This document shows, one piece after another, positions 236-8,008 of a DNA stretch of 8,008 bases. Under the pieces are notes generated by a model. That model did no database searches, was not told where the DNA came from, and saw only the letters and a list, made by a program, of their open reading frames with translations. How positions within the stretch are numbered: the stretch's first letter is position 1; each line of letters starts with the position of its first letter. Where the stretch lies: the IMG/VR virus record IMGVR_UViG_2695420427_000002; one strand, 5' to 3'. The translations under genes were made by a program, and so were the position numbers. This DNA is from a virus (Duplodnaviria > Heunggongvirae > Uroviricota > Caudoviricetes).

Positions 236-674
236 CTACGGTCCTCCTCCCCGGAGGGGGGCATTTCATTATTTTTCTAATCGTTACTGGTGAGAAGGCG
301 GAAGAAAAAGCCAGTTCTTCGCCCCTAAATAACAGCATGATTCCAGTCCATGCAAAATCTGATTTCCAGCTCACACATACCGAGCACTGTACAAAAAACC
401 GCCAACCAAGGCAGTTAAGAGTGTGTTCCCGGGGTTTGCTTAGAATATTTTGTAAGTTGTCCGAAGAGATATTTACAACACCAGAATGATGCATTATCAG
501 TCCCCTGCCAGAGGTTCACTACGTAACCTGACCGACAATGCACCATTCTGGTGCTGAAAAAAGAGCACTGGAACTGCAACAAAACAACATCACAGAACAG
601 GAGATGGTAAGGAGTCAGACATTCCCACACAATATTGTGTCAGTGCAAATAACAACCTTCGTCTCAAATCTCGC

Positions 675-749
<75 letters not shown>

Positions 750-752
750 ATA

Positions 753-828
<76 letters not shown>

Positions 829-830
829 GC

Positions 831-907
831 TGGCCCACCACCGAGGACTCGAACCTCGCACCGTCAACTTAGAAGGTTGATGCTCTATCCGGATGAGCTA
901 GTGGTGG
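831..907 (-). tRNA. tRNA-Arg (anticodon UCU, reads AGA/AGG), 77 nt with encoded CCA
   Basis: Reverse complement reads CCACCACTAGCTCATCCGGATAGAGCATCAACCTTCTAAGTTGACGGTGCGAGGTTCGAGTCCTCGGTGGTGGGCCA. Acceptor stem CCACCAC/GTGGTGG (C1-G72), anticodon stem TCAAC/GTTGA with loop CTTCTAA, T-stem CGAGG/CCTCG. 2-nt spacer to the Thr tRNA. Confidence 0.85.
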
Positions 908-908
908 T

Positions 909-985
909 TGGTGGCCCTTGCTGGACTTGAACCAGCGACCTGGCGATTATGAGTCGCTCGCTCTGACCAACTGAGCTAAAGGGCC
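909..985 (-). tRNA. tRNA with CAU anticodon, probably Ile2-type (AUA-reading, lysidine-modified) rather than elongator Met
   Basis: Reverse complement reads GGCCCTTTAGCTCAGTTGGTCAGAGCGAGCGACTCATAATCGCCAGGTCGCTGGTTCAAGTCCAGCAAGGGCCACCA. Acceptor stem GGCCCTT/AAGGGCC, anticodon loop CTCATAA. The anticodon and T arms resemble enterobacterial ileX-type tRNA as I recall it. 1-nt spacer to the Arg tRNA. Confidence 0.85.
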
Positions 986-994
986 GGAGGCAGA

Positions 995-1023
995 ATAATA
1001 ACCATATGTCATCACATCTGCAA
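995..1023 (-). promoter_or_regulatory. Candidate sigma70 promoter for the tRNA array (TTGCAG-17-TATTAT)
   Basis: Minus-strand -35 TTGCAG (plus 1018-1023), 17-bp spacer, -10 TATTAT (plus 995-1000), placing the start a few nt upstream of the first tRNA 5' end at 985. Confidence 0.35.
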
Positions 1024-1073
1024 ACTCATCTGACCACCAGCACGTTTAACGTCCTGTGCCGTTTTTCAGGTAT

Positions 1074-1096
1074 AAAAAAACCCGCATAAAGCGGGC
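1074..1096 (-). terminator. Short rho-independent terminator just downstream of the Q-position gene (tR'-like position)
   Basis: Inverted repeat cccgc (1081-1085) / gcggg (1091-1095) with loop ataaa. On the minus strand it is followed by seven U (plus-strand A-run 1074-1080). It lies about 80 bp downstream of the stop at 1175-1177. Confidence 0.5.
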
Positions 1097-1174
1097 TCTT
1101 TCAAATGTCCATGTCTGCTATTCGCCTCGCGGTACAGCTTTGCGAAGCGTACAAGAATTGAAGCAGTTTTTACG

Positions 1175-1729
1175 TCAAAAAGCAATAACTTTTTTCTCTA
1201 TACCAAAAGCCATAACCATTGGTTTGTACAAAATAAATTCTGCCACCTTTAGCCAATGCTCAATGCGTCTTTCACAGGTTCTTAAACTCCATTTCGGGTG
1301 TGCATCATTCAGCAGTTCAGCCATTTTGCGTTTGGTCATCCCCCGCCCCTCATACCGTTGCCGAAGGACGCTAATCAATCCTGGATGCTCTGCCAGCACC
1401 TCACTTATGACCCGATCAATACATAACGCCTCTGCATCAGTACAATGCGCCAGCCAGCTCTTTTGCTTACCGTTAATCATATCCCGCAAAAAAGCCTCAA
1501 GTTCAGACTTGTTCAGACCTGCTTTTTTCATCCTCCGGAGCGCCTCGTTAATTGCCGTTTTTGTCAGCTTTTTAGAGGTCAACATCAGGTTAAACATATT
1601 CCCCGTCTTACCGCCACCAATATACGACCAGCGCCCCCACATACGTAGTTTTCCCTGAATCCAGACACTTTCCAGCGTGGTGAGACGAAGGTGTTCTCCG
1701 CTTTTTCCTGTATTCGTTGGGTAAATCAT
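1175..1729 (-). CDS. 184-aa protein at the Q position; putative late-gene regulator/antiterminator by synteny only
   Basis: Start ATG at 1729-1727 is preceded by GAAAGGAGGG 7 nt upstream and overlaps the upstream stop (ATGA at 1726-1729), so the longer 224-aa track ORF is not the real start. It is the last gene before the terminator and tRNA array. No Zn-finger motif recognised, so Q identity is an inference. Confidence 0.6.
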   Translation of the reverse strand: MIYPTNTGKSGEHLRLTTLESVWIQGKLRMWGRWSYIGGGKTGNMFNLMLTSKKLTKTAINEALRRMKKAGLNKSELEAFLRDMINGKQKSWLAHCTDAEALCIDRVISEVLAEHPGLISVLRQRYEGRGMTKRKMAELLNDAHPKWSLRTCERRIEHWLKVAEFILYKPMVMAFGIEKKVIAF

Positions 1730-2016
1730 AAATATCCCTCCTTTCTCCAGATTTCTTGTGTGCGAAAAACACCTTCTGCATGCATCAGGCGTAATTCTTC
1801 TTTGGTGTAATCGCTGGTTTTTACCCGCCCGTCGATTAAATCGTGGCACGAGCTACAGGCAATCGCTGCCTGCATATCGTGTGGCTTTATCGCTGTTCCG
1901 CACGTTCCCGCCAGTCGGTAATGCGCCAGCACAGACGTTTCCGGATCGTGATTGCAGTAGCCAGGAATTCTGACGGTGCACATCTGCCCCCGCGCCGCTT
2001 TACGTAAATCCACCAT
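1726..2016 (-). CDS. 96-aa Cys-rich YbcO-like (DUF1364-type) nin-region protein
   Basis: Four Cys in a C-x7-C ... C-x2-C-H arrangement (CTVRIPGYC ... CSSCH), and the same 96-aa length as E. coli DLP12 YbcO as I recall it. TAATG overlap with the upstream gene at 2014-2018. Confidence 0.6.
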   Translation of the reverse strand: MVDLRKAARGQMCTVRIPGYCNHDPETSVLAHYRLAGTCGTAIKPHDMQAAIACSSCHDLIDGRVKTSDYTKEELRLMHAEGVFRTQEIWRKEGYL

Positions 2017-2615
2017 TACGCAAACTCCAGCAGCTGCGCGGCCACATTTTCGACTTGTTCCGGAGAGGAAAATTTACGGAACAGAATCCAGTTCCACAGC
2101 ACATTCAGAACAGATTTATAAACCTGCTGAAACTCGGTTTCGTCCATATTCGCAAAAGCGATGGATTTTGCCCGACGCCCGCGGCTACCGTCCGGATAAA
2201 AATGTTCGGTGTAAAATCCAGCCTGAATGGTTACCCACTCGCGAAAAGCCTCAAACGACTTTAGCAATGCCGTATCCCGGGTTCTGCGTGTCGCAACTGT
2301 ATTCAGATATTGCTCTGCGGCTTCGCTCAGAGCTGGCGTATGTTCCCGACCTACTGATTCGCACAGGTAATCAACGAAACCAGACAGCAGTTCTCGTTCG
2401 CGAGGCGTGATCGCCCCACCGACCGGAGTCCAGTAATCGAATCCCAGTTGCAGGAGTTTGAAAAAACGCTTGTGGAATGCGTAGTTACGCACACGCTTAA
2501 AGTCTGCGTGTATCCACTCACCTGTTTTGATTTGATGCAGAAAATCGCAACTCTCCGGCGTCGCCGGGAGAAGTAATCCGGAAGAGGTTTGTTTGATCAG
2601 TTGTATATGCGCCAT
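2016..2615 (-). CDS. 199-aa conserved prophage protein of unknown function (copy 1 allele)
   Basis: ATG at 2615-2613 with GGAG-type Shine-Dalgarno upstream (cggagaactacgATG). Translationally coupled to the YbcO-like gene. Present in all three cassette copies. Confidence 0.65.
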   Translation of the reverse strand: MAHIQLIKQTSSGLLLPATPESCDFLHQIKTGEWIHADFKRVRNYAFHKRFFKLLQLGFDYWTPVGGAITPRERELLSGFVDYLCESVGREHTPALSEAAEQYLNTVATRRTRDTALLKSFEAFREWVTIQAGFYTEHFYPDGSRGRRAKSIAFANMDETEFQQVYKSVLNVLWNWILFRKFSSPEQVENVAAQLLEFA

Positions 2616-2662
2616 CGTAGTTCTCCGCTGGCGCAGTAGAATGGGTGTTCAGCCCGTTATGT

Positions 2663-2691
2663 AGTATACCAGAATTAATGCCAATACTAAC
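2663..2691 (-). promoter_or_regulatory. Candidate extended -10 promoter (TGgTATACT) in the unique junction upstream of cassette copy 1
   Basis: Minus-strand TGGTATACT (plus 2663-2671) with a weak -35 (gttagt). Lies within the unique 2616-2782 segment immediately upstream of the copy-1 199-aa gene. Confidence 0.25.
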
Positions 2692-2797
2692 AGGATGCTC
2701 TGACTCGCAATTCATCCAGCAGTTTATCATTTCCCATAATGTCACTTACCCTCATCGGTAAAAAAATTGCCTTTCGACCATAGAAGCAGTTTTTACG

Positions 2798-3352
2798 TCA
2801 AAAAGCAATAACTTTTTTCTCTATACCAAAAGCCATAACCATTGGTTTGTACAAAATAAATTCTGCCACCTTTAGCCAATGCTCAATGCGTCTTTCACAG
2901 GTTCTTAAACTCCATTTCGGGTGTGCATCATTCAGCAGTTCAGCCATTTTGCGTTTGGTCATCCCCCGCCCCTCATACCGTTGCCGAAGGACGCTAATCA
3001 ATCCTGGATGCTCTGCCAGCACCTCACTTATGACCCGATCAATACATAACGCCTCTGCATCAGTACAATGCGCCAGCCAGCTCTTTTGCTTACCGTTAAT
3101 CATATCCCGCAAAAAAGCCTCAAGTTCAGACTTGTTCAGACCTGCTTTTTTCATCCTCCGGAGCGCCTCGTTAATTGCCGTTTTTGTCAGCTTTTTAGAG
3201 GTCAACATCAGGTTAAACATATTCCCCGTCTTACCGCCACCAATATACGACCAGCGCCCCCACATACGTAGTTTTCCCTGAATCCAGACACTTTCCAGCG
3301 TGGTGAGACGAAGGTGTTCTCCGCTTTTTCCTGTATTCGTTGGGTAAATCAT
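2798..3352 (-). CDS. 184-aa Q-position protein, copy 2 (identical protein to copy 1)
   Basis: Identical translation to 1175-1729, same Shine-Dalgarno and ATGA coupling. Here it is followed after 15 bp by the unique junction, not by the terminator and tRNAs. Confidence 0.6.
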   Translation of the reverse strand: MIYPTNTGKSGEHLRLTTLESVWIQGKLRMWGRWSYIGGGKTGNMFNLMLTSKKLTKTAINEALRRMKKAGLNKSELEAFLRDMINGKQKSWLAHCTDAEALCIDRVISEVLAEHPGLISVLRQRYEGRGMTKRKMAELLNDAHPKWSLRTCERRIEHWLKVAEFILYKPMVMAFGIEKKVIAF

Positions 3353-3639
3353 AAATATCCCTCCTTTCTCCAGATTTCTTGTGTGCGAAAAACACCTTCT
3401 GCATGCATCAGGCGTAATTCTTCTTTGGTGTAATCGCTGGTTTTTACCCGCCCGTCGATTAAATCGTGGCACGAGCTACAGGCAATCGCTGCCTGCATAT
3501 CGTGTGGCTTTATCGCTGTTCCGCACGTTCCCGCCAGTCGGTAATGCGCCAGCACAGACGTTTCCGGATCGTGATTGCAGTAGCCAGGAATTCTGACGGT
3601 GCACATCTGCCCCCGCGCCGCTTTACGTAAATCCACCAT
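3349..3639 (-). CDS. YbcO-like 96-aa protein, copy 2
   Basis: Identical translation to 1726-2016. Confidence 0.6.
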   Translation of the reverse strand: MVDLRKAARGQMCTVRIPGYCNHDPETSVLAHYRLAGTCGTAIKPHDMQAAIACSSCHDLIDGRVKTSDYTKEELRLMHAEGVFRTQEIWRKEGYL

Positions 3640-4238
3640 TACGCAAACTCCAGCAGCTGCGCGGCCACATTTTCGACTTGTTCCGGAGAGGAAAATTTAC
3701 GGAACAGAATCCAGTTCCACAGCACATTCAGAACAGATTTATAAACCTGCTGAAACTCGGTTTCGTCCATATTCGCAAACGCGATAGATTTCGCCCGACA
3801 CCCACGGCTACCGTCCGGATAAAAATGCTCGGTGTAAAATCCGGCCTGAATGGCTACCCACTCGCGGAAAGCCTCAAACGACTTTAGCAATGCCGTATCA
3901 CTGGTTCTGCGTGTCGCAACTGTATTCAGATATTGCTCTGCGGCTTCGCTCAGAGCTGGCGTATGTTCCCGGCCTACTGATTCACACAGGTAATCAACGA
4001 AACCGGACACCAGTTTTCGTTCGCGAGGCGTGATCGCCCCACCGACCGGAGTCCAGTAATCGAAACCCAGTTGCAGGAGTTTGAAAAAACGCTTGTGGAA
4101 TGCGTAGTTACACACACGCTTAAAGTCTGCGTGTATCCACTCACCTATTTTGATTTGATGCAGAAAATCGCAACTCTCCGGCGTCGCCGGGAGAAGTAAT
4201 CCGGAAGAGGTTTGTTTGACCAGTTGTATATGTGCCAT
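3639..4238 (-). CDS. 199-aa conserved prophage protein, copy 2 (divergent allele, 7 aa differences)
   Basis: ATG at 4238-4236 with Shine-Dalgarno (ccggagaaagccgATG). The 213-aa track ORF begins at a TTG at 4280 and is probably not the true start. Differs from copies 1 and 3 at T/I, R/C, EL/KV, R/S, T/A and R/C. Confidence 0.65.
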   Translation of the reverse strand: MAHIQLVKQTSSGLLLPATPESCDFLHQIKIGEWIHADFKRVCNYAFHKRFFKLLQLGFDYWTPVGGAITPRERKLVSGFVDYLCESVGREHTPALSEAAEQYLNTVATRRTSDTALLKSFEAFREWVAIQAGFYTEHFYPDGSRGCRAKSIAFANMDETEFQQVYKSVLNVLWNWILFRKFSSPEQVENVAAQLLEFA

Positions 4239-4276
4239 CGGCTTTCTCCGGTGGCACGGTGTTACACAGCAGGAGT

Positions 4277-4564
4277 TCAATCCTGCTCAAGATTGTAGAT
4301 GAGTTTATTCTTCAGCAAAAGCAGAAAACCAGCCTTAAAACCAATCTCTTTCAAAACCCGTAATGATGTGACAAATTCGTCCTCACGCAAAATAAAACCG
4401 TCCGTCAGAAGTCCATTACAAAAATAAAATAACACAGCACCGCTCTTCCTTTGTTGAGATTGCAAACATCTAATGCGGCAATGGCTGACAATCGCTCCAT
4501 TCTCAACGCGCACAGCATAGAGGCCATTTTCACTAAAAATTTCACGCAATTCTTCGATTTTCAT
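4277..4564 (-). CDS. 95-aa hypothetical protein, first gene of the operon (at the position rem occupies in E. coli Qin)
   Basis: ATG at 4564-4562 with GGAAGG about 10 nt upstream and a candidate promoter about 80 bp upstream. Identical second copy at 6275-6562. Function unknown. Confidence 0.5.
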   Translation of the reverse strand: MKIEELREIFSENGLYAVRVENGAIVSHCRIRCLQSQQRKSGAVLFYFCNGLLTDGFILREDEFVTSLRVLKEIGFKAGFLLLLKNKLIYNLEQD

Positions 4565-4645
4565 CTTCAGAATCCTTCCAGATAAATAGCTCTCCCCTGT
4601 TCGGGGTCCATCCCTCTTCTCCCTGCGCGCTACTTAAGTGAGTCG

Positions 4646-4673
4646 ATTCTATCTGCGAAGGTGCGCGAATCAA
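4646..4673 (-). promoter_or_regulatory. Candidate sigma70 promoter for the 95-aa / 199-aa / YbcO-like / Q-position operon (TTGATT-16-TAGAAT)
   Basis: Minus-strand -35 TTGATT (plus 4668-4673), 16-bp spacer, -10 TAGAAT (plus 4646-4651), about 80 bp upstream of the 95-aa gene start. Confidence 0.4.
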
Positions 4674-4693
4674 ATTCACCGGAAATAAACAAC

Positions 4694-4736
4694 AAAAAAC
4701 CCGCCGAAACGCTGAGAGATCACAGCGATGGGCGGG
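4694..4736 (-). terminator. Rho-independent terminator downstream of hok
   Basis: Nested hairpin: outer arms cccgcc (4700-4705) / ggcggg (4731-4736), inner stem cgctg/cagcg. On the minus strand it is followed by six U (plus-strand aaaaaa 4694-4699). A 9-bp GC stem gggcgggga/tccccgccc at 4778-4805 lies in the hok 3' UTR. Confidence 0.55.
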
Positions 4737-4813
4737 TTAAGTGCGGGTGCGTTGAGGATGCCTGACACATCAGAGGTGGGCGGGGATGGGATCAGCTCCC
4801 CGCCCGGTCACTC

Positions 4814-4969
4814 TTACTTCCTGGATTCGTAGTCTACGAAGACAGCGACCTCCGTCTGGCCGGTTCGGATTCGTACCTCACAGAGGTCTTTCCTCGTTAC
4901 CAGTGCCGTCACTATGACGGTTAAACAGATGACGATCAGGGCGATTAACATCGCCTTTTGCTGCTTCAT
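4814..4969 (-). CDS. hok: Hok/Gef-family type I toxin (51 aa), copy lacking its own promoter
   Basis: MKQQKAMLIALIVICLTVIVTALVTRKDLCEVRIRTGQTEVAVFVDYESRK: single transmembrane helix followed by the Hok-family LTRK-LCE-R-R-G-EVA-F motif, close to HokD/RelF as I recall it. Shine-Dalgarno AAGGAG upstream of the ATG at 4969. The track ORF is an in-frame upstream extension to 5026. Confidence 0.85.
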   Translation of the reverse strand: MKQQKAMLIALIVICLTVIVTALVTRKDLCEVRIRTGQTEVAVFVDYESRK

Positions 4970-5047
4970 AGCCTGCTTCTCCTTGCCTTTCGGCATGTAA
5001 GAGGCTAACCTACATGTGCAAAGCATGAAATTGGCCTCAGATTAATG

Positions 5048-5350
5048 TTAAGCGTCTTGCCGGACGCGTAATGTTAACTGGGGCTTTTCTCTATCTGCCT
5101 TTTGGTGTTCATGCCTGAAAAGTTCAGACTTGTTCAGACCTGCTTTTTTCATCCTCCGGAGCGCCTCGTTAATTGCCGTTTTTGTCAGCTTTTTAGAGGT
5201 CAACATCAGGTTAAACATATTCCCCGTCTTACCGCCACCAATATACGACCAGCGCCCCCACATACGTAGTTTTCCCTGAATCCAGACACTTTCCAGCGTG
5301 GTGAGACGAAGGTGTTCTCCGCTTTTTCCTGTATTCGTTGGGTAAATCAT
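5048..5350 (-). pseudogene. Truncated Q-position gene: first 76 codons fused at the repeat junction to the hok leader, giving a 24-aa unrelated tail
   Basis: Identical to the 5' part of 1175-1729 down to about 5120. The translation then diverges (ELFRHEHQKADREKPQLTLRVRQDA) because the sequence beyond 5119 is the end of the neighbouring repeat unit. Confidence 0.75.
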
Positions 5351-5637
5351 AAATATCCCTCCTTTCTCCAGATTTCTTGTGTGCGAAAAACACCTTCTGC
5401 ATGCATCAGGCGTAATTCTTCTTTGGTGTAATCGCTGGTTTTTACCCGCCCGTCGATTAAATCGTGGCACGAGCTACAGGCAATCGCTGCCTGCATATCG
5501 TGTGGCTTTATCGCTGTTCCGCACGTTCCCGCCAGTCGGTAATGCGCCAGCACAGACGTTTCCGGATCGTGATTGCAGTAGCCAGGAATTCTGACGGTGC
5601 ACATCTGCCCCCGCGCCGCTTTACGTAAATCCACCAT
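5347..5637 (-). CDS. YbcO-like 96-aa protein, copy 3
   Basis: Identical translation to 1726-2016. Confidence 0.6.
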   Translation of the reverse strand: MVDLRKAARGQMCTVRIPGYCNHDPETSVLAHYRLAGTCGTAIKPHDMQAAIACSSCHDLIDGRVKTSDYTKEELRLMHAEGVFRTQEIWRKEGYL

Positions 5638-6236
5638 TACGCAAACTCCAGCAGCTGCGCGGCCACATTTTCGACTTGTTCCGGAGAGGAAAATTTACGG
5701 AACAGAATCCAGTTCCACAGCACATTCAGAACAGATTTATAAACCTGCTGAAACTCGGTTTCGTCCATATTCGCAAAAGCGATGGATTTTGCCCGACGCC
5801 CGCGGCTACCGTCCGGATAAAAATGTTCGGTGTAAAATCCAGCCTGAATGGTTACCCACTCGCGAAAAGCCTCAAACGACTTTAGCAATGCCGTATCCCG
5901 GGTTCTGCGTGTCGCAACTGTATTCAGATATTGCTCTGCGGCTTCGCTCAGAGCTGGCGTATGTTCCCGACCTACTGATTCGCACAGGTAATCAACGAAA
6001 CCAGACAGCAGTTCTCGTTCGCGAGGCGTGATCGCCCCACCGACCGGAGTCCAGTAATCGAATCCCAGTTGCAGGAGTTTGAAAAAACGCTTGTGGAATG
6101 CGTAGTTACGCACACGCTTAAAGTCTGCGTGTATCCACTCACCTGTTTTGATTTGATGCAGAAAATCGCAACTCTCCGGCGTCGCCGGGAGAAGTAATCC
6201 GGAAGAGGTTTGTTTGACCAGTTGTATATGTGCCAT
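5637..6236 (-). CDS. 199-aa conserved prophage protein, copy 3 (recombinant allele)
   Basis: The 5' end matches copy 2 (V at residue 7, same upstream sequence) while the body matches copy 1 at all the variable sites. Confidence 0.65.
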   Translation of the reverse strand: MAHIQLVKQTSSGLLLPATPESCDFLHQIKTGEWIHADFKRVRNYAFHKRFFKLLQLGFDYWTPVGGAITPRERELLSGFVDYLCESVGREHTPALSEAAEQYLNTVATRRTRDTALLKSFEAFREWVTIQAGFYTEHFYPDGSRGRRAKSIAFANMDETEFQQVYKSVLNVLWNWILFRKFSSPEQVENVAAQLLEFA

Positions 6237-6274
6237 CGGCTTTCTCCGGTGGCACGGTGTTACACAGCAGGAGT

Positions 6275-6562
6275 TCAATCCTGCTCAAGATTGTAGATGA
6301 GTTTATTCTTCAGCAAAAGCAGAAAACCAGCCTTAAAACCAATCTCTTTCAAAACCCGTAATGATGTGACAAATTCGTCCTCACGCAAAATAAAACCGTC
6401 CGTCAGAAGTCCATTACAAAAATAAAATAACACAGCACCGCTCTTCCTTTGTTGAGATTGCAAACATCTAATGCGGCAATGGCTGACAATCGCTCCATTC
6501 TCAACGCGCACAGCATAGAGGCCATTTTCACTAAAAATTTCACGCAATTCTTCGATTTTCAT
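6275..6562 (-). CDS. 95-aa hypothetical protein, second copy
   Basis: Identical to 4277-4564, with the same Shine-Dalgarno and upstream promoter candidate. Confidence 0.5.
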   Translation of the reverse strand: MKIEELREIFSENGLYAVRVENGAIVSHCRIRCLQSQQRKSGAVLFYFCNGLLTDGFILREDEFVTSLRVLKEIGFKAGFLLLLKNKLIYNLEQD

Positions 6563-6643
6563 CTTCAGAATCCTTCCAGATAAATAGCTCTCCCCTGTTC
6601 GGGGTCCATCCCTCTTCTCCCTGCGCGCTACTTAAGTGAGTCG

Positions 6644-6671
6644 ATTCTATCTGCGAAGGTGCGCGAATCAA
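6644..6671 (-). promoter_or_regulatory. Candidate operon promoter, second copy (TTGATT-16-TAGAAT)
   Basis: Same sequence as 4646-4673 at the 1998-bp offset. Confidence 0.4.
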
Positions 6672-6691
6672 ATTCACCGGAAATAAACAAC

Positions 6692-6734
6692 AAAAAACCC
6701 GCCGAAACGCTGAGAGATCACAGCGATGGGCGGG
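6692..6734 (-). terminator. Terminator downstream of hok, second copy
   Basis: Same sequence as 4694-4736 at the 1998-bp offset. Confidence 0.55.
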
Positions 6735-6811
6735 TTAAGTGCGGGTGCGTTGAGGATGCCTGACACATCAGAGGTGGGCGGGGATGGGATCAGCTCCCCG
6801 CCCGGTCACTC

Positions 6812-6967
6812 TTACTTCCTGGATTCGTAGTCTACGAAGACAGCGACCTCCGTCTGGCCGGTTCGGATTCGTACCTCACAGAGGTCTTTCCTCGTTACCA
6901 GTGCCGTCACTATGACGGTTAAACAGATGACGATCAGGGCGATTAACATCGCCTTTTGCTGCTTCAT
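6812..6967 (-). CDS. hok: Hok/Gef-family type I toxin (51 aa), copy with its native upstream region
   Basis: Identical to 4814-4969. Its leader extends into unique sequence at 7118-7194 that contains a promoter candidate. Confidence 0.85.
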   Translation of the reverse strand: MKQQKAMLIALIVICLTVIVTALVTRKDLCEVRIRTGQTEVAVFVDYESRK

Positions 6968-7143
6968 AGCCTGCTTCTCCTTGCCTTTCGGCATGTAAGA
7001 GGCTAACCTACATGTGCAAAGCATGAAATTGGCCTCAGATTAATGTTAAGCGTCTTGCCGGACGCGTAATGTTAACTGGGGCTTTTCTCTATCTGCCTTT
7101 TGGTGTTCATGCCTGAAGCAGATAGCCTCAAGCACCCGCAGTC

Positions 7144-7173
7144 ATTCTACTTACCTCGCCAATATGAAATCAA
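7144..7173 (-). promoter_or_regulatory. Candidate hok mRNA promoter (TTGATT-18-TAGAAT)
   Basis: Minus-strand -35 TTGATT (plus 7168-7173), 18-bp spacer, -10 TAGAAT (plus 7144-7149). Predicted start about 170 nt upstream of the hok ATG, consistent with the long leaders of hok-family mRNAs. Lies outside the repeat, so only this hok copy has it. Confidence 0.35.
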
Positions 7174-7194
7174 TCAGAAAGGTGCCCCATAAAA

Positions 7195-7881
7195 TCACTC
7201 CTTCTCTTCTTTACCGTAGTGGAGTTGACCAATTTTGATAAGAGGGCGTCCCTGAGATTTGCGGTGTAGATTGGTATCGCGCAGAGAATACACACAGCCA
7301 CAATATTCCTGCTGATAGAATTTTTCGCGCTTGCTGATTTCAATCATACGGGACGAGCCGCCCTGCTTGCGCCAGTTATAATCCCAGTACACCATGCCCG
7401 GATAATGCGCGACGGCTCGCCGCCCACAGTCGTTAACCTGCTGCATATTTTTCCAGCGTGAAATGCCCAGTGAACTGCTGATCACACTGAAACCATTTTC
7501 AGCGGCGTACAGCGCTGTCCGCTCAAAACGCATGTCAAAACACATGGTGCAACGGATCCCTCGTTCGGGCTCCCATTCCATTCCTTTGGCTCGTTCAAAC
7601 CAGTTGTCTGTGTCGTAATCAGCATCAATAAACGGCACGCCGTGTTGTTCAGCAAAGCGAATATTCTCATCCTTACGAATTAAATACTCTTTCTGAGGAT
7701 GAATGTTCGGGTTGTAGAAAAAGATGGTGTAGTCGATTCCCGAGGCCTGAAGCGCCTCCATCACCTCACCGGAACATGGAGCACAGCAAGAGTGCAGTAG
7801 TAGTTTGTTTGCCCCGTTTGGGAGCTCCAATTTGGGCCGTTTGAAATCAGCAACTGTCATAAATATGTTTATTGGGGTCAT
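7195..7881 (-). CDS. queH: QueH-like epoxyqueuosine reductase (DUF208 family), 228 aa
   Basis: Long clean ORF with the Cys-rich HSCCAPCS motif near the N-terminus and a C-terminal CGC motif, which I recognise as the DUF208/QueH signature. No obvious Shine-Dalgarno at either candidate start (7881 or 7860). Confidence 0.6.
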
Positions 7882-8008
7882 AAAAATATCAAAGAGTGTA
7901 GCATTAGAACGGGGCTATCGGAAACAGATGTGTGACTGCTCCCCGCCCTTTCGGGTGGTCTCCTGATGATTTGAGGGTGCAGAAATCCCTCCGGTTAAGG
8001 ATTAAATT

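Follow-up and report, generated by a model that had tools for sequence, protein, structure and literature searches.

Three allelic versions of a lambdoid-prophage irsA-ybcO-Q cassette in one 8,008-nt window, probably placed head to tail by assembly

The 8,008-nt stretch of DNA analysed here (the window) appears to hold, one after another, three alleles of a single late-regulation cassette of lambdoid prophages, irsA(DUF1367)-ybcO-Q; their head-to-tail order, with its two blunt joints, was probably (roughly 0.6) created by assembly, scaffolding or concatenation and would not reflect a tandem array in a chromosome. The features supporting this reading are: the 100% identity of the three blocks composing the window to public haplotypes; the location of the two prophages of Shigella sonnei from which these haplotypes derive (A and B) at separate single-copy loci; the absence of both joints from all the collections searched; the size of the window once the extra copies are subtracted (4387 bp, against 4386 bp for a single-copy locus); the lack of microhomology and the presence of an orphan base at one of the joints; the precedent of a false duplication of the same cassette in a public scaffold (L013); and the frequency with which Shigella drafts break inside irsA.

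All the genes of the window are encoded on the minus strand (Table 1). The plus-strand order is: four tRNA genes, three head-to-tail late-regulation cassettes and queH. The eight main ORFs were scanned against Pfam and the tRNAs were predicted with ARAGORN. Three proteins are encoded in each copy of the cassette: a Q-like antiterminator (DUF1133/Phage_antitermQ), the HNH-like YbcO (DUF1364) and a DUF1367 protein of 199 aa. In copies 2 and 3, rem and a hok/mok toxin gene lie upstream of the DUF1367 gene. None of the cassette proteins has a family in NCBIfam. The Q-like ORFs (1175-1849, 2798-3472) encode 224 aa from a GTG start and 184 aa from the ATG start used by PGAP; the 224-aa form, which would share 124 bp with ybcO, is unlikely to be the one in use. 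The rem ORF (95 aa, upstream of irsA) gave no match in the scanned copy of Pfam; precomputed annotations assign it to PF27490 (Rem), and it is named "rem: prophage antirepressor" in the phage Rac record MN652886. The fourth tRNA (909-985), with a CAT anticodon, is called Met by ARAGORN and tRNA-Ile by PGAP in FDAARGOS_944, the latter label implying a lysidine-modified CAT. At the A locus of all the complete S. sonnei genomes fetched (L004-L012) an IS stands in place of the equivalent of 541-914, and three of the four tRNAs are missing as a result; their B locus stops matching the window at 674, with an IS-family transposase gene slightly beyond; the window and the drafts L014 and L016 have no IS in 541-914. 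queH (epoxyqueuosine reductase) lies within the prophage, flanked by replication genes and hok, and looks like a moron-type cargo gene; the enzyme normally used by this host is QueG. Among the phage collection, PP818812.1 (Actinobacillus phage vB_Apl-pPE4) matches 61% of the window at 93.7% identity, a surprising result for a phage of Pasteurellaceae, so that a confusion of hosts or contamination may be involved.

Table 1 Coordinates of the features discussed in the text (positions in the 8,008-nt window).
Feature	Position	Strand	Details
Four tRNA genes downstream of Q	675-985	-	Gly-TCC, Thr-TGT, Arg-TCT, CAT anticodon; ARAGORN
Q-like late antiterminator, copy 1	1175-1729	-	DUF1133 / Phage_antitermQ; 184 aa from ATG
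ybcO, copy 1	1726-2016	-	DUF1364, HNH-like putative nuclease
irsA / DUF1367, copy 1	2016-2615	-	B allele; 199 aa
Q, copy 2	2798-3352	-	
ybcO, copy 2	3349-3639	-	
irsA, copy 2	3639-4238	-	
rem beside copy 2	4277-4564	-	
hok/mok beside copy 2	4814-5026	-	
Truncated Q, copy 3	5048-5470	-	Chimeric ORF
ybcO, copy 3	5347-5637	-	
irsA, copy 3	5637-6236	-	
rem beside copy 3	6275-6562	-	
hok/mok beside copy 3	6812-7024	-	
queH	7195-7881	-	
Patch in copy 1	2157-2524	-	B-type states at 19 sites
Patch in copy 2	3780-4147	-	A-type states; 19 substitutions vs copies 1 and 3; 368 bp
72-bp identity island common to A and B alleles	2525-2596 (equivalents 4148-4219, 6146-6217)	-	
B-specific 5' end of irsA plus 167 bp upstream	2597-2781	-	Includes truncated 3' part of a 70-aa hypothetical ORF
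Block 1, prophage-B haplotype	674-2781	-	2108/2108 bp identical to L024, S. sonnei 53G HE616528, ~1.94 Mb
Block 2, prophage-A haplotype	2783-5119	-	2337/2337 bp identical to L005, S. sonnei 53G HE616528, ~0.78 Mb
Block 3, A/B hybrid haplotype	5120-8008	-	2889/2889 bp identical to S. sonnei draft contigs L014, L015, L017
Joint A, orphan base A	2782		Native base is T both in the B continuation and 5' of the Q-downstream sequence
Joint B, blunt join	5119/5120		hok-upstream sequence joined to the middle of Q

The three copies were compared by ungapped self-comparison (offsets of 1623 between copies 1 and 2, 1998 between copies 2 and 3, and 3621 between copies 1 and 3). Copies 1 and 2 are identical from 1160 to 2156, show 19 differences between 2157 and 2524, differ again at 2597 and 2610, and are unrelated from 2618. 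Copies 2 and 3 are identical from 3122 to 3779, show the same 19 differences in 3780-4147, and are identical again from 4148 to 5119; copies 1 and 3 are identical from 1499 to 2596 and diverge from 2597. Copy 3 combines the copy-1 patch with the copy-2 5' end and upstream region, and the switch between its parents can lie solely within the 72-bp identity island. The probability of the 19 sites falling by chance within a single 368-bp span of the 1998-bp unit is about 1e-12, and that of finding no difference across the 997 bp adjoining the patch, at the patch divergence of 5.2%, is about 1e-23. The preliminary description, made from the sequence before this analysis, was accurate on these points: it had reported about 19 differences over about 380 bp (19 sites over 368 bp here), with seven amino-acid changes (the same number here), inside coordinates (3760-4160) which bracket the patch correctly; identical flanks including ybcO and Q; and a hybrid third copy switching between 2525 and 2597, placed by the alignment at 2525-2596. 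The clustering persisted when the copies were realigned, and no even spread of differences was found.

The window was compared by BLAST with loci fetched through exact-protein look-ups, and each of the three blocks was identical over its full length to a public haplotype (Table 1). Block 3 corresponds to A-type flanks plus a B-type patch, a haplotype already existing outside the window. In every complete S. sonnei chromosome returned (HE616528, CP180280 and CP179990 among them), A and B are separate prophages with one cassette each, about 1.2 Mb apart in the chromosome of S. sonnei 53G, and a single cassette was present at every related locus fetched. This includes FDAARGOS_944, the closest complete "E. 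coli" genome, whose single-cassette locus measures 4386 bp, a value comparable to that of the window without its extra copies (8008-1623-1998 = 4387 bp). On its outer sides (1-1159 and 7118-8008) the window has the sequence that naturally borders the single-copy locus. All the differences among copies are pre-existing polymorphisms, without new mutations. The earlier proposal of recombination between paralogous copies, or of a chimeric assembly, stands as regards the hybrid nature of copy 3 and the assembly alternative, which is now the better-supported reading of the array. Recombination in place between paralogs does not: the sequences do not support treating the three copies as paralogs, given that each block is a haplotype known elsewhere and that A and B are distant single-copy loci.

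Joint A (2781/2783) connects B-specific upstream sequence to a point 15 bp past the Q stop codon, with an extra base in between; joint B truncates the copy-3 Q, generating a chimeric ORF. Neither joint was spanned by any of 5,426 complete E. coli genomes (megablast), scans of GTDB representatives, IMG/VR and JGI metagenomes returned the exact 32-mers of neither, and the public gene-position index has no entry for the chimeric truncated-Q ORF with either of its two alternative starts. There is no microhomology at either joint and no IS at the joints, nor any transposase-like match among the eight main ORFs scanned; an IS-mediated or microhomology-mediated origin of the joints was rejected, there being no IS sequence and no shared bases. 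This absence is still compatible with illegitimate recombination at the joints. A false duplication of this same cassette is already present in a public record: in the S. sonnei scaffold FTXZ01000093 (L013, position 8838) a contig that stops inside an IS and another that begins in the middle of Q (window-equivalent 1489) are linked through a single N, creating a false 575-bp partial tandem duplication. Shigella drafts frequently break inside irsA, leaving partial genes at contig ends.

Two observations count against an artefactual origin. De Bruijn contigs usually stop at repeat boundaries or IS ends, and the positions of the joints coincide with neither, so that a simple model of scaffolded contigs does not fully explain them. 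In addition, the window comes from an independent, less IS-ridden genome and is not a paste of public records, as indicated by base 405, not seen in any fetched locus, and by the presence of 541-673, a segment absent from both loci of the complete S. sonnei genomes (1-673 continues as the IS-free spacer of L014 and L001). A real array, resulting from the local amplification of the Q cassette at prophage A of an unsequenced S. sonnei-like strain, nevertheless seems unlikely to us. Its favourable points are, besides the atypical joints and the independent genome, the single orientation and register of the three copies, the natural outer flanks, the exchange between prophages A and B which clearly occurs in the S. 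sonnei lineage, and the fact that enterobacteria are known to form tandem duplications without homology at the junction. However, three rare events would have had to occur within 8 kb: the blunt tandem duplication of 1998 bp (joint B); the capture of a piece of prophage B, held by homology at one end and illegitimately joined at the other (joint A); and the conversion of the patch in one copy from the B-type copy. Moreover, neither joint was found in the collections searched, copies 2 and 3 represent different alleles of the same chromosomal locus, both known separately, the draft contigs harbouring the copy-3 allele pass unbroken through the joint-B position, and new mutations, as noted above, are missing from the copies. 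Taken by itself, joint B may mark a true tandem duplication of 1998 bp, produced by illegitimate recombination. The full version of this scenario, a genuine chromosomal amplification by homology-independent joins whose copies would be trading sequence with each other and with a second prophage, we regard as unlikely; if true, it would show lambdoid mosaic modules in the course of being formed, and would provide two full Q genes and one truncated.

Prophages A and B share a Q-ybcO-3'irsA module 100% identical over at least 1.24 kb (0 differences in at least 1242 bp), followed by 19 differences in 368 bp; the 19-site patch is the stretch of irsA located directly past the end of this shared module. 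The unusual feature is the identical flank, not the patch. An abrupt identity step is found here between alleles whose donor and recipient share one genome (HE616528, CP180280, CP179990), and the identical module would have arisen when the two resident prophages exchanged sequence by homology (gene conversion), the tract stopping at 2156/2157. The A-type Q-ybcO module would have been copied into B: the B-type upstream region (2597-2781) shows 99.5% identity to STEC prophages, in which the identity of Q is only 71%, indicating that the B locus carries an A-type module. The hybrid allele may have originated by exchange from B to A, taking the patch up to the 72-bp island. The direction of both transfers (A-type Q-ybcO into B, B-type patch into A) was deduced solely from the STEC and FDAARGOS loci. 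A reciprocal crossover or an inversion between the two prophages was unsupported, as the reciprocal hybrid protein was missing from a collection of 15 billion proteins (exact-sequence look-up); HE616528 yielded its A and B loci in opposite orientations. Phages are documented to exchange sequence with resident defective prophages (PMC3945230). Nothing relevant was found in the literature on gene conversion between S. sonnei prophages.

The alternative origin for the hybrid allele is that short-read assemblers joined the two paralogous prophage genes across the 72-bp island, copy 3 being a chimera inherited from a draft or from mixed-strain data; we consider this possible, although only tentatively so. 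The exact copy-3 protein was found on 163 contigs, all from S. sonnei, the longest of 11,948 bp, and the allele was detected in none of the contigs above 20 kb or closed genomes searched; GCA_022018495.1 and GCA_040035245.1 are among the drafts showing it. In contrast, the copy-2 protein (IrsA in UniRef) appeared on 204 contigs including 5-Mb chromosomes, with 15 collection blocks whose longest carrying contig exceeds 1 Mb; the copy-1 protein was found on about 1000 contigs, chromosomes included. The absence of the reciprocal chimera and the difficulties of assemblers at this locus, which leave partial genes at contig ends, point in the same direction. Against a chimera, the contigs run through the whole 1.9 kb of the would-be two-copy repeat, which is easier if the sequence is single-copy and real; the allele occurs in two prophage contexts (L014 and L015); and natural intermediate haplotypes show real breakpoints inside the patch. 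One of these is L029, the only IMG/VR match of a 104-mer initially considered specific to copy 3, which turned out to be an A-type allele with another breakpoint (between 4112 and 4147).

The 19 changes of the patch are 12 synonymous and seven non-synonymous (T31I, R43C, E75K, L77V, R113S, T129A, R147C; I7V lies outside the patch), with 14 transitions and five transversions; 12 of the 19 sites are third codon positions. The dN/dS is 0.17 in the patch and 0.18 in the whole gene. The same sites segregate in other combinations in FDAARGOS_944, the STEC prophage L003 and the IMG/VR contig L029, and the patch resembles neutral divergence between alleles at the boundary of a lambdoid mosaic. That the 199-aa protein is subject to diversifying selection or programmed hypervariation is highly improbable: the accumulation of seven amino-acid changes in 123 codons, three of them from Arg to Cys or Ser, could suggest it, but the low dN/dS, the 12 synonymous changes, the transition bias and the lack of reverse-transcriptase or other diversity-generating families in the Pfam scan of the eight main ORFs led us to discard it. 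Comparison with L003 goes in the same sense, the DUF1367 gene being, by identity, the most conserved of the cassette (96%, versus 89% for ybcO and 71% for Q). The suggestion that the 199-aa protein is the variable component of a conserved cassette was consequently abandoned; the neighbouring genes seem conserved because prophages A and B have an identical Q-ybcO module. At two sites, 3902 (R113S, codon 113) and 4112 (R43C, codon 43), copy 2 differs from copies 1 and 3 and also from FDAARGOS_944, otherwise A-like. R43 is invariant in 31 DUF1367 homologues and is replaced by Cys in the copy-2 allele (S. sonnei prophage A); both changes suggest functional decay of a cryptic-prophage gene, and R43C also counts against selection for diversity.

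The 199-aa protein can be assigned by sequence to the DUF1367/IrsA family: the search proposed in the preliminary description gave a match to PF07105 along the complete profile (1-198/198), copy 1 scoring 321.3 bits and copy 2 318.2 bits (cut-off 25). The name irsA comes from the phage Rac record MN652886, and IrsA is used in UniRef. As in Gifsy, Rac and other lambdoid prophages, the gene matches DUF1367 at full length and is located in the nin region, just upstream of ybcO and Q; in some Stx phages the DUF1367 gene is located among replication genes (PMC8044961). No function is recorded in the literature for DUF1367/IrsA; non-polar deletion of the homologues of irsA carried by Gifsy-1 and Gifsy-3 left induction reporters unaffected (PMC3121763). 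The protein also matches PHROG 319 (E = 7e-70, profile 1-158/159), labelled NinB/Orf, a label which belongs to the cluster as a whole. It shares with lambda NinB/Orf (PDB 1PC6) this PHROG and a comparable nin-region place upstream of Q; it differs in being about 50 residues longer and in having no Pfam NinB match (DUF1367 was the only family at E up to 10). Lambda Orf was not returned by phmmer and profile searches of the PDB, which gave no significant match to any solved structure; a match to neuroserpin (E ~0.05) was considered noise. The predicted model of IrsA is mediocre (pLDDT 68.5). A NinB/Orf-like fold is at most suggested, with scores that are not significant, and a role of IrsA as an Orf-like recombination mediator should be taken as a lead, not as a finding.

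Taken together, the case corresponds to known prophage mosaicism plus an array that is probably artefactual. Its biological weight is small, module exchange between resident lambdoid prophages being familiar and S. sonnei being full of decaying ones; a real array would amount to a Q antiterminator cassette amplified independently of homology, which is rare. The case serves as a warning that what look like tandem paralogs, one of them "recombinant", may be three alleles from a population set side by side by assembly. The irsA allele of copy 3, which many S. sonnei drafts contain and no closed genome searched does, is unfit as a lineage marker until confirmed by long reads.

The array resembles the false duplications formed at scaffold or gap-closure joins in that overlapping homologous versions of a locus are placed head to tail by blunt joints, one of them with a single filler base, as the single N of L013 at the same cassette. 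It differs from them in that the window has no N and its joints are not at obvious repeat or IS boundaries. The exchange between prophages A and B adds nothing new in kind to the mosaic exchange between lambdoid phages and resident prophages (PMC3945230), with which it shares the abrupt switches from 100% identity to at least 5% divergence, the modules common to two prophages of one chromosome and the recombinant haplotypes with breakpoints in conserved genes.
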